From Candidatus Iainarchaeum sp. (GTDB lineage: Archaea; Iainarchaeota; Iainarchaeia; Iainarchaeales; 0-14-0-20-34-12), in assembly GCA_030649345.1 (NCBI GenBank), contig JAUSKK010000053.1, forward strand, positions 1 through 6,518: DNA of 6,518 bases. Direction: 5' to 3'. The notes under the pieces are model-generated. The model did no database searches. It saw only the letters and a list, made by a program, of their open reading frames with translations, and was not told the origin of the DNA. The position numbers were made by a program, and so were the translations under genes. The first letter of the stretch is position 1. Each line of letters starts with the position of its first letter. This document shows positions 2,070 to 6,518 of this stretch, one piece after another.

Positions 2070-2095
2070 AATTCTTTTTCTTTTGGCAACTTACA

Positions 2096-2124
2096 TTTTC
2101 TTTTTCTTGCCAAGAAAAAGAAAA
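2096..2124 (-). terminator. A/T-only perfect palindrome with T-runs directly after tRNA-His; probable terminator or processing hairpin
   Basis: ttttctttttcttg (2096-2109), c, caagaaaaagaaaa (2111-2124) are exact reverse complements. On the minus strand the element starts TTTTCTTTTTCTT, 5 nt after the tRNA discriminator base. Oligo-T tracts are archaeal termination signals. Confidence 0.45.
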
Positions 2125-2129
2125 GGCAG

Positions 2130-2331
2130 GACCGCGGCCGAGAATCGAACTCGGGTCCGAAGCTATCAGCAACAACTTTTTGTTGTTCACGGAAAAGGTT
2201 CGCGCGGAGCGCAATTTTTCGTAAACCTTTTTCTAAAAGGTTTCGCCGAAGGCCTTTTCCGTTAACGCTTTTTTGCGTTAGCAAAAAAGGGTTACCACAG
2301 GCTTCTATTCTACCTCTAAACTACCGCAGTC
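2130..2331 (-). tRNA. tRNA-His (anticodon GUG) with genome-encoded G-1, discriminator C73, no encoded CCA, and a ~130-nt intron (2165-2294) between positions 37 and 38
   Basis: Hand-folded cloverleaf, part 1: G-1; acceptor ACUGCGG/CCGCGGU; U8 A9; D-arm GUUU-AGAGGUA-GAAU with A14, G18G19 and A21; A26. Part 2: anticodon stem GAAGC/GCUUC; loop C32 U33 G34 U35 G36 G37 | intron | A38; variable GGAC; T-arm CCGAG-UUCGAUU-CUCGG; C73. A G-1:C73 pair is the hallmark of tRNA-His. Confidence 0.9.
2165..2294 (-). other. tRNA-His intron (~130 nt), highly structured
   Basis: RNA sequence: UAACCCUUUUUUGCUAACGCAAAAAAGCGUUAACGGAAAAGGCCUUCGGCGAAACCUUUUAGAAAAAGGUUUACGAAAAAUUGCGCUCCGCGCGAACCUUUUCCGUGAACAACAAAAAGUUGUUGCUGAU. 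Helices seen: CUUUUUUGC/GCAAAAAAG (9 bp); long-range ACGGAAAAGG/CCUUUUCCGU (10 bp); AAACCUUUU/AAAAGGUUU (9 bp); UUGCGC/GCGCGA (6 bp including one G-U); AACAAC/GUUGUU (6 bp). Exact splice boundaries are inferred from the cloverleaf, not demonstrated. Confidence 0.7.
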
Positions 2332-5252: not shown

Positions 5253-6137
5253 TTAATTCTTTTTATTTCGCTGCTGTAAAAGAACTCCTGCAATAATCAA
5301 AATCAAACCCAGCACAGTTGATAAAAGAATTTCTTCTCCAGGCACCATAAAGTGAATTACAATCAATGAAAGAAACGGAGAAAGATAAACTAAATTAGTA
5401 ACTTGCGCAGTTGTTTTCGATAACTGCAAGGCTGTTAACCATACTGCAAATGTAAAACTCATTTCAAAAAGTCCAACATATACACTTCCCAATAATCCAC
5501 TTACATTCGGCCAAGTAATTGGAGCTATGAGTAGTGAAACCAGTGCAATGAACATAAATCCAAACAAGCCATTCAAGAAAAGTTTTACAACTGGATCGCG
5601 TTTATCTTTTACATTGTAAATCCAAAATAAAGCCCAAATTAAAGAACTTCCCAATGCAAGTACTGCGCCATAGAGGTTGGTGAATTGTAATCCGAAAATA
5701 TTTCCATGCGTTGCAATAACAATGGTTCCCAAAAAACTTATGATTATTGCCAAAATACTTGTAAGACTAATTTTTTGTTTTAATAAAGGAATCGAAAGTA
5801 TAGCCAGCATAATGGCCCAAGTATAATTTAATGACTGTGCTTCTTGCGCTGGCAATACTGCATAGGCTTGAAATAAAACAAAATAATACAAAAATGGATT
5901 CAGAAATCCCAGTAAAGCTGAATTCAAATACTCTTTTTTAGAATACGTAAACAAAATATTTAATTTTTTTTGAAACACTACAATTGCAAACAATACAATG
6001 GCTGATGTTCCGGAGGCAAAAAATAACAACTGAATAAAATTTAAATGCTGAAGCGACAGTTTGAATGCCGAAGCAACAGTAGACCAAGCAAGAATGGCTA
6101 AAAAAGTATATGCATAGGCTTTGGTCTGTGAATCCAT
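5253..6137 (-). CDS. EamA/RhaT-type permease of the drug/metabolite transporter (DMT) superfamily, ~294 aa, ~10 TM
   Basis: ORF 5253-6254 in the track. From MDSQTKAYAYTFLAILAWSTVASAFK onward it is a typical double-EamA hydrophobic protein. I place the start at ATG 6137-6135 (M40 of the track ORF). The upstream 39 codons are hydrophilic, GC-richer and overlap a structured, tRNA-Leu-like element. Confidence 0.85.
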   Translation of the reverse strand: MDSQTKAYAYTFLAILAWSTVASAFKLSLQHLNFIQLLFFASGTSAIVLFAIVVFQKKLNILFTYSKKEYLNSALLGFLNPFLYYFVLFQAYAVLPAQEAQSLNYTWAIMLAILSIPLLKQKISLTSILAIIISFLGTIVIATHGNIFGLQFTNLYGAVLALGSSLIWALFWIYNVKDKRDPVVKLFLNGLFGFMFIALVSLLIAPITWPNVSGLLGSVYVGLFEMSFTFAVWLTALQLSKTTAQVTNLVYLSPFLSLIVIHFMVPGEEILLSTVLGLILIIAGVLLQQRNKKN

Positions 6138-6168
6138 TAATTCAGCTCTTTTGTTCAATAACTTGGTT

Positions 6169-6254
6169 TGCACGGAGAAGAACCCAGAAATCCAAACCAC
6201 TCCGTGGTTTCGATGCATCCGGGGTTGAGGATCTTCACTTCGTTCGATCCTCAT
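6169..6254 (-). other. structured spacer the size of tRNA-Leu that shares both tRNA-Leu termini; possible decayed tRNA-Leu copy or att-like duplication
   Basis: tttgcacggagaag at 6167-6180 repeats 6270-6283, the tRNA-Leu 3' end. ttcgatcc at 6243-6250 repeats 6344-6351, near the tRNA-Leu 5' end. The spacing is almost identical (about 81 vs 79 nt). No cloverleaf can be drawn. Local hairpins are GAGGAUC/GAUCCUC and AAACCAC-GGA-GUGGUUU. Confidence 0.3.
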
Positions 6255-6271
6255 GATTATTATTAACTTTT

Positions 6272-6354
6272 TGCACGGAGAAGGACTCGAACCTTCGGAC
6301 CCACTAAGGGACAGGCTTCTGAAGCCTGCGAAATTGCCGCTATTCGATCCGTGC
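6272..6354 (-). tRNA. tRNA-Leu (anticodon CAG), class II with long variable arm, no encoded CCA, no intron
   Basis: Hand fold, 83 nt. Acceptor GCACGGA/UCCGUGC with A73. D-arm GAA(U)-AGCGGCAA-(U)UUC, then G26. Anticodon arm CAGGC-UUCAGAA-GCCUG. 15-nt variable arm UCCCUUAGUGGGUCC. T-arm GAAGG-UUCGAGU-CCUUC. The 27-nt A/T-rich spacer upstream (6355-6381) contains AATATTTATTTTTT on the minus strand, which could act as terminator and/or promoter. Confidence 0.9.
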
Positions 6355-6381: not shown

Positions 6382-6518
6382 TGACCCCGCTGGGATTCGA
6401 ACCCAGATCACAAGCTAATTGCATTCTTTCTTGCGAAGTATTTACCTTCGGCTTTTGCGTAAGCAAAAAGTTTTGCCGTGAGGCACTTTTTGCTCACGTT
6501 TTCCGTAAACGATTTTTT
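6382..6518 (-). tRNA. partial intron-containing tRNA of undetermined identity: 3' exon 6382-6417, intron from 6418 running off the window (more than 100 nt)
   Basis: Minus strand reads ...U-AGCUU-GUGAU-CUGGG-UUCGAAU-CCCAG-CGGGGUC-A. That gives a 3' anticodon-stem strand, a 5-nt variable loop, a canonical T-arm, a 3' acceptor strand and discriminator A. No D-arm or matching 5' anticodon-stem strand (AAGCU) occurs in the 101 nt upstream, so the interruption is long and the 5' exon lies outside the window. Confidence 0.65.

Follow-up and report, generated by a model that had tools for sequence, protein, structure and literature searches.

The window analysed here, a stretch of 6,518 nt, is the entire contig C31 of an assembly of 1.32 Mb in 55 contigs that is 94.6% complete, and all of its tRNA genes lie on the minus strand. 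An intact tRNA-Leu(CAG) gene was found at 6272-6354 (-) by both ARAGORN and Rfam. With introns allowed, ARAGORN also placed a tRNA-His(GUG) gene with a 130-nt intron at 2129-2330 (-). At the end of the window lies the 3' half of a further tRNA gene, and direct reading of 6382-6416 (-) bore out the first-pass annotation, which had seen a clean T-arm and acceptor half there. This half consists of A38, the anticodon-stem strand GCUUG, a 4-nt variable loop, the T arm CUGGG-UUCGAAU-CCCAG (a partial and sub-threshold match to Rfam tRNA), the acceptor strand CGGGGUC and the discriminator A, while CCA is not encoded. It had been described as preceded by at least 101 nt without any D arm or 5' anticodon-stem strand, and as interrupted by a very long insert. 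Both descriptions are correct: the 102 nt at 6417-6518 contain neither element, and they form the last 102 nt of a 122-nt intron. The features referred to below are the following.

2072-2129, minus strand: 3' trailer of tRNA-His, a pyrimidine/purine hairpin with a mirror purine tract; 93% identity over 60 nt with the opening of the Ser(UGA) intron on C44.
2165-2294, minus strand: 130-nt intron of tRNA-His(GUG), a paralog of the Arg(GCG) intron; the segment with 37/39 identity spans 2255-2293.
6382-6416, minus strand: 3' exon of tRNA-Arg(GCG), from direct reading and from the ortholog alignment of the spliced product.
6416-6422, minus strand: predicted 3' splice site, with the bulge UU/A38 at 6416-6418 and GCAA at 6419-6422 pairing with UUGC, exon positions 32-35 (on C12).
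6417-6518, minus strand: last 102 nt of the 122-nt intron at 37/38, from the BHB scan; its first 20 nt are at C12:17-36.
6426-6434, minus strand: GCAAGAAAG, able to pair over 9 bp with CUUUUUUGC (5' part of the intron, on C12) as inner helix h' in the minimum-energy fold of the whole intron.
6452-6470, minus strand: UA2, a 7-bp U/A hairpin, homologous by position to His 2224-2242 and to the second hairpin of the Glu(CUC) intron.
6458-6498, minus strand: predicted 14-bp hairpin with an inner 3-bp GC hairpin, in the minimum-energy and centroid folds.
6499-6510, minus strand: linker motif GUUUACGGAAAA, which follows UA1 (UA1 itself on C12), from a genome-wide motif count.
6503-6518, minus strand: contig junction (same 16 nt as C12:1-16), at the edge of the segment in common with the His intron.

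The missing 5' exon and its anticodon, which the first-pass annotation had proposed to recover by extending the contig, were found on another contig of the same assembly. The first 16 nt of C12 are identical to the last 16 nt of the window, and the other contig ends gave no match, so C12 most likely begins where C31 ends. The minus strand of C12:1-98 supplies the rest of the gene, with the acceptor strand GGCCCCG, a D arm, the anticodon-stem strand CGAGC and the loop UUGCGG, from which the anticodon GCG is read. Across the join, the acceptor stem GGCCCCG/CGGGGUC pairs at 7/7 positions and the anticodon stem CGAGC/GCUUG at 5/5. Since this 5' exon exists, the 3' half is no fragment and, most likely, no half of a split tRNA. 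The break between the contigs falls on an exact repeat of 25 nt that is shared with the His intron, and as repeats are an ordinary cause of assembly breaks, we attribute the break to it. A search of metagenome contigs with the exact junction pattern returned 0 matches.

The joined gene is the only tRNA-Arg(GCG) of the genome, as ARAGORN returned no second copy, and it should therefore be the working one. It is predicted to give a 219-nt precursor, with a D-loop intron of 23 nt and an intron of 122 nt between positions 37 and 38, and a 74-nt product. For the intron at 37/38, a scan for bulge-helix-bulge (BHB) geometry gave a textbook motif, with a central helix UUGC/GCAA (4/4) flanked by the bulges GG/A and UU/A, and an outer helix h of 7 bp that runs through the anticodon stem; two 3-nt bulges and a 4-bp helix are the criterion for archaeal introns spliced by EndA. 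The D-loop intron has a relaxed BHB, in which a central helix CUGG/CCAG (4/4) and an inner helix GGU/GCC of 3 bp are combined with an outer helix of 1 bp. The spliced 74-nt product has all four stems and folds into a complete cloverleaf. It is 89-92% identical to intronless tRNA-Arg(GCG) of related genomes (66/74 with G009 and 66/72 with G012). Its D arm reads GUAU...ACA-GAAU-G, and both the stem strands and the flanking bases equal those of the G012 ortholog, which also carries the same A12-A23 mismatch in the D stem.

Both enzymes that such a precursor would need are encoded in the genome: EndA by a single 174-aa alpha-type ORF on C53 (PF01974, 89 bits), and RtcB on C35 (PF01139, 510 bits). 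A plain alpha4 EndA is classically strict about its substrate. Alpha4-type EndAs with an extra loop have been reported from DPANN lineages with many disrupted tRNA genes (PMC5829648), and the relaxed motif in the D loop fits that report. The BHB introns of archaeal tRNAs are cut by EndA and the exons are ligated by RtcB (PMC4090602, PMC7714728), and from its motifs we infer that the Arg(GCG) precursor is spliced likewise. Two other readings of the gene were tried and rejected. On the joined sequence ARAGORN called a tRNA-Ala(CGC) with a 130-nt intron, which has a poor anticodon stem and no BHB, whereas Arg(GCG) fits the orthologs; an alternative D-arm splice with a perfect GUAU/GUAU stem has no BHB support, and the G012 ortholog carries the GAAU strand. 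Searches for Rfam intron families with a ribozyme core gave nothing up to E = 1 in the window and nothing up to E = 10 in its end region and C12:1-400, where sub-threshold noise was the only return. A reading of the intron as a C/D-box sRNA of the tRNA-Trp type was likewise discarded, because neither a C box (RUGAUGA) nor a D box (CUGA) is present in the Arg(GCG) intron; the His intron holds one CUGA only. Directly upstream of the gene, an 8-bp U/A hairpin (UAUUUUUG, a 5-nt loop and CAAAAAUA; C12:99-119, minus strand) ends at the first base of the tRNA, so that a hairpin unit abuts the 5' end of the gene as well.

The portion of the long intron that lies in the window (6417-6518) is predicted to fold with -28.3 kcal/mol, at z = -3.75 relative to dinucleotide shuffles. 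The dominant structure predicted there is the 14-bp hairpin at 6458-6498, which competes with UA2: in the best fold, 6452-6470 forms mostly the 3' arm of the 14-bp hairpin, and the 5' arm of UA2 is engaged in it. The stretch CUUUUUUGC has alternative partners in the predicted folds, as it can pair either locally or with GCAAGAAAG near the 3' splice site.

A comparison of this intron with that of tRNA-His showed that the two share a module, which is not the one first proposed. The first-pass annotation had matched a hairpin at 6452-6470 with a nearly identical one at 2268-2289. Both hairpins sit exactly at these positions and the match exists, but taken alone it carries little weight (a 17-nt BLAST match in the genome with E of about 2-3). 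The strong homolog of the His intron is found instead at the 5' end of the Arg(GCG) intron: nucleotides 2 to 40 of the two introns are identical at 37/39 positions (z about 22 relative to shuffles), and the Arg copy of this segment, C12:1-36 plus 6503-6518, lies mostly beyond the end of the window. UA2, a second and weaker copy, resembled the first hairpin of the His intron (UA1) because the units are internally duplicated. A third intron, of tRNA-Glu(CUC), belongs to the same set. Its nucleotides 71-112 are identical at 39/42 positions to nucleotides 19-60 of the His intron (z = 24). The Glu(CUC) intron, too, opens with AACCC-U6GC, and its hairpin loop holds a nested insert of 57 nt. In a three-way alignment the Arg, His and Glu(CUC) introns are collinear over ~90 nt, with identities of 66/101, 68/86 and 58/83. 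Starting one base after the 5' splice site, the order of units is AACCC, UA1 (the U6GC hairpin), a GUUWACGG-AAAA linker, a short GC hairpin, AAAC(C) and UA2. The three introns differ at their 3' ends only, which must pair with the anticodon loop of their own gene.

The finer claims about the shared elements were checked as well. A common GUUUACG(A/G)AAAA segment had been noted, and the linker GTTWACGRAAAA does sit in both introns. The supposed 'UUCG-type' element arose from reading the plus strand; the RNA has GCCGAAGG, which is part of a CGAAG...CUUCG hairpin. Since the introns are collinear, the elements do not stand in a different order, as had been thought. Motif counts agree with a shared family. 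The word TTTTGC-N4-GCAAAA occurs 2 times in the window where 0.01 are expected, a number that none of 200 shuffles reached (0/200), and with loops of 3-5 nt it occurs 11 times genome-wide against about 0.5 expected, with 5/11 copies in tRNA introns; tRNA genes with 150-nt flanks make up 1.5% of the genome. The linker GTTWACGRAAAA is found 9 times genome-wide (1.7 expected), and four sense copies lie in tRNA introns, namely those of Arg-GCG, His (twice) and Arg-UCU.

Related introns are found throughout the genome. ARAGORN predicted introns in 27/45 tRNA genes, 17 of them at least 70 nt and about 8 at least 100 nt long, in a census that rests on this program, some of whose calls are wrong. One such call was a 'tRNA-Asn(GTT)' with a 204-nt intron (C44:5626-5916); the gene there is in fact a tRNA-Ser(GGA) of class II, whose intron measures about 200 nt. 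Comparison of the introns, which takes up another of the checks suggested at first reading, revealed several sequence-related groups anchored at the 5' splice site, and two further pairs show the same pattern as Arg and His. The introns of Pro(CGG) on C15 and Ser(GGA) on C44 are 100% identical over 53-54 nt from the splice site (the first 54 nt of the Ser intron), and those of Arg(UCU) and Asp(GUC) have 92% identity over 51 nt. Many introns open in one way: N1-5-CC comes first, then a pyrimidine arm and a purine arm on either side of a loop, and behind them a conserved linker and a purine tract. In modules of differing sequence this final tract mirrors the purine arm at 12/12 to 14/14 positions, compared with 10-11/12 as a direct repeat and 4-7/12 for the control strand; in the UA1 unit of Arg(GCG) the mirror is matched by AAAACG only (6 of 8). 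The trailer of tRNA-His is built likewise: a 13-bp hairpin is followed by the linker UGUAAGUUGCC and by a purine tract with an exact mirror match (13/13). Because of its likeness to the start of the Ser(UGA) intron, we conclude that one element stands behind a splice site in one case and behind the 3' end of a tRNA in the other. Perfect 7-bp U/A hairpins are common genome-wide, and scanning for them in general gave too much noise for a census.

Several further repeats were seen near tRNA genes. On the plus strand of the window, 6190-6223 repeats the first 34 nt of the Pro(GGG) intron on C20 with 100% identity. This stretch lies on the strand opposite to tRNA-Leu(CAG), just downstream of that gene, and overlaps the predicted N-terminus of an EamA-family ORF (5253-6254), and this intron-like overlap makes the predicted start codon of the ORF doubtful. 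A separate module of 28-32 nt, consisting of AAUCAGAACC, a tetraloop and GGUUCCGAUACCUCCC, has about 12 copies, for example at C38:5971-6001 and at other sites on C1, C2, C5, C9, C12, C17, C18, C25, C27, C42 and C44. It opens the introns of Leu(CAA) and Glu(UUC) and elsewhere abuts tRNA genes, sometimes antisense, and a copy is also present in the related genome G025 (L078). In addition, the '200-nt intron' of a doubtful second tRNA-Lys(CUU) call (C20:25812-26085) holds the C-box- and D-box-like words GUGAUGA and CUGA; its repeat of about 60-90 nt has at least 8 further copies in the genome.

Comparison with relatives showed introns present in some genomes and absent from others. The Arg(GCG) orthologs of G009 and G012, which represent two related families, have no intron; in two genomes of the same family the ortholog was not found by pattern search. 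Between the congeneric genomes G001 and G002 the tRNA-His exons are identical and the flanks can be aligned, and the two genes differ by an 84-nt intron. The tRNA-His intron is thus absent in G001, 84 nt long in G002, where it has one hairpin module, and 130 nt long in the genome studied here. The interior of the His intron is also collinear with intergenic tandem arrays of G017, a complete genome from another family of the same order, and similar arrays of hairpin units lie between genes of the own genome. The hairpin building blocks are therefore not specific to introns; outside of them they occur in tRNA leaders, trailers and intergenic arrays. The arrays of G017 (L064-L072) and G016 (L076) include, for example, exact repeats of about 27 to 41 nt in three to four copies. 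Unique spacers are missing from them, so that they do not qualify as CRISPR arrays, and there is no tRNA nearby.

Taken together, the data make it probable that these are paralogous, EndA-spliced introns that were built from a dispersed family of hairpin repeats and copied between tRNA genes. The 37/39 identity of the Arg and His introns, the collinear Glu(CUC) intron, the other pairs and the absence of the intron in relatives agree with the first-pass annotation in that the inserts are related and show the pattern to be expected from a propagating family of introns or insertions, in contrast to independent events. That two of them lie within 4.3 kb, to which it had also pointed, is incidental, as the family is genome-wide. 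In this explanation, the 219-nt precursor would be transcribed, EndA would cut at both BHBs and RtcB would join the exons to give the 74-nt tRNA, with release of the introns. At the DNA level, introns would be copied from tRNA gene to tRNA gene, a route suggested by their paralogy, their anchoring at the 5' splice site, the nested insert and their presence or absence among relatives. Copied introns would then grow or shrink as short hairpin units are duplicated, inserted within one another or decay, and these units themselves would be members of the repeat family dispersed over tRNA leaders, trailers and intergenic arrays. Because splicing removes them, the introns could persist without a function of their own and would probably be neutral.

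Several observations count against this explanation. The D stem of the product has its A12-A23 mismatch, which G012 shares, the outer helix of the D-loop BHB is only 1 bp, and a RAYT/IS200-type transposase that might copy introns was not found in the genome. Oligo-T runs are a terminator for the archaeal RNA polymerase, and a T6 run stands 6 nt into the Arg(GCG) intron, where it should act as such; a simple model of transcription in cis leaves it unexplained. T5-T6 runs occupy the same place in at least 9 other introns; the introns with such a run 4-11 nt inside the 5' splice site include those of His, Arg(GCG), Glu(CUC), Arg(UCU), Asp, Val, Gly(CCC), Lys and Ser(UGA).

A bolder version of the copying explanation, which we consider possible but put forward tentatively, is that the chain of hairpin units is a non-autonomous mobile element that lands directly after tRNA exon ends and thereby creates new BHB introns. 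The units in question are the U/A hairpin, the GUUWACG-AAAA linker and the GC hairpin, together with the related pyrimidine/purine hairpin and its mirror tract. The oligo-T/hairpin head of such an element might be derived from tRNA trailers or terminators. No match to a RAYT/IS200-family Y1 transposase (PF01797) was found in the 94.6%-complete genome.

We also considered that the introns have a function of their own that is kept by selection, be it as a stable circular RNA, a platform for a protein, a fold-back triplex of DNA or RNA, or a shield of the tRNA gene against integration. Different families of the order have kept the same grammar of units, the third purine tract of the sister module mirrors the purine arm exactly in many copies of different sequence, and units abut exon ends at intron starts, in the His trailer and at the C12:99-119 hairpin, all of which speak for such a function. 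On the other hand, orthologous genes of relatives work without the intron, some copies carry nested insertions and decayed arms, there is neither an Rfam family nor a C/D box, and the modules of Arg (6 of 8) and His follow the mirror rule only in part. We therefore regard a selected function as unlikely.

Less likely still, and in our judgement improbable, is that the 3' half on C31 and the 5' half on C12 are separate transcripts of a split tRNA that is trans-spliced as in Nanoarchaeum equitans. The contig break does fall between the halves, the T6 run right after the 5' exon could end a 5'-half transcript, and, in the manner of split halves, CUUUUUUGC after the 5' exon can form 9 bp with the GCAAGAAAG that precedes the 3' exon. 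However, the 16 nt shared by the contig ends are identical and in the same orientation, which speaks for adjacency and not complementarity, and it is this overlap that led us to rate the idea low; moreover, the break sits at the 25-nt exact repeat shared with the His intron, and the paralogous His and Glu(CUC) introns are contiguous within their contigs. Finally, that A/T-rich hairpins arose independently in A/T-rich introns, the low-complexity coincidence raised in the first reading, is hardly credible: the match of 6452-6470 with 2268-2289 has an E of only about 2-3 and perfect 7-bp U/A hairpins are common across the genome, but this coincidence is contradicted by the 37/39 identity at z = 22, by the collinearity of three introns with linker and GC-hairpin units included, and by motif words that exceed expectation 5- to 20-fold and cluster in tRNA introns.

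Copied, EndA-spliced introns remain the explanation that we prefer, and a protein-spliced archaeal tRNA intron with paralogs elsewhere is in itself of an ordinary, known kind. With other archaeal BHB introns the Arg(GCG) gene shares the 37/38 site plus a non-canonical D-loop site, the 3-nt bulges and the 4-bp helix, and its intron has neither an ORF nor a ribozyme core. Archaeal tRNA introns are usually a few tens of nucleotides long. The present introns are much longer, at 122 nt in Arg(GCG) and 130-204 nt in its sister genes; their difference from the usual kind lies also in an interior that is, for Arg(GCG), a chain of reusable hairpin units, and in the T5-T6 runs just inside the 5' splice site. 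The closest precedent is provided by the transposed tRNA introns of Thermoproteales, which, according to Fujishima et al. (2010) as cited in PMC4090602 and PMC4033280, are near-identical across isoacceptors and were gained in a lineage-specific manner, with copying thought to occur at the DNA level. Similarity between different isoacceptor genes (His/Arg, His/Glu, Pro/Ser) and absence of the intron in relatives are found here as well. In contrast to Thermoproteales, the present genome is small and A/T-rich and belongs to another phylum-level lineage, the likeness has its anchor at the 5' splice site of canonical introns, whose 3' ends are gene-specific, and the units also occur in trailers and intergenic arrays.

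As dispersed short palindromic units arranged in mosaics, the repeats also resemble bacterial REP/BIME elements and the PIT/TMECO triplex repeats (PMC4666352). One module type here, a hairpin with a mirror purine tract, is like the triplex repeats of that study, triplex formation being putative. Unlike REP/BIME, the units are archaeal and tied to tRNA genes and introns, and no RAYT/IS200-type transposase accompanies them in this genome. With the split tRNAs of Nanoarchaeum equitans the gene shares a BHB between the sequence after the 5' half and that before the 3' half, but here the parts are most likely contiguous, and they lack the complementary, GC-rich leader and trailer that split halves typically have. 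In the literature that we searched, we found no description of long, modular tRNA introns that are built from hairpin repeats and have very recent copies.

There are practical consequences as well. The shared intron module broke the assembly, which serves as a warning, and because ARAGORN missed or mislabelled several such genes, the tRNA complements of such genomes are under-called. How tRNA introns arrive was still described as open in a 2026 census of Asgard genomes, which found no general route (bioRxiv 10.64898/2026.10.13.758758). The lineage studied here offers fresh events, with 95-100% identity, from the splice site onward, between introns of different tRNA genes, a nested insert in one copy and congeneric genomes that differ only by an intron, and these make the copying route testable. 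If the more tentative idea of a mobile hairpin chain were true, this chain would be the long-sought vehicle of tRNA intron gain in archaea.
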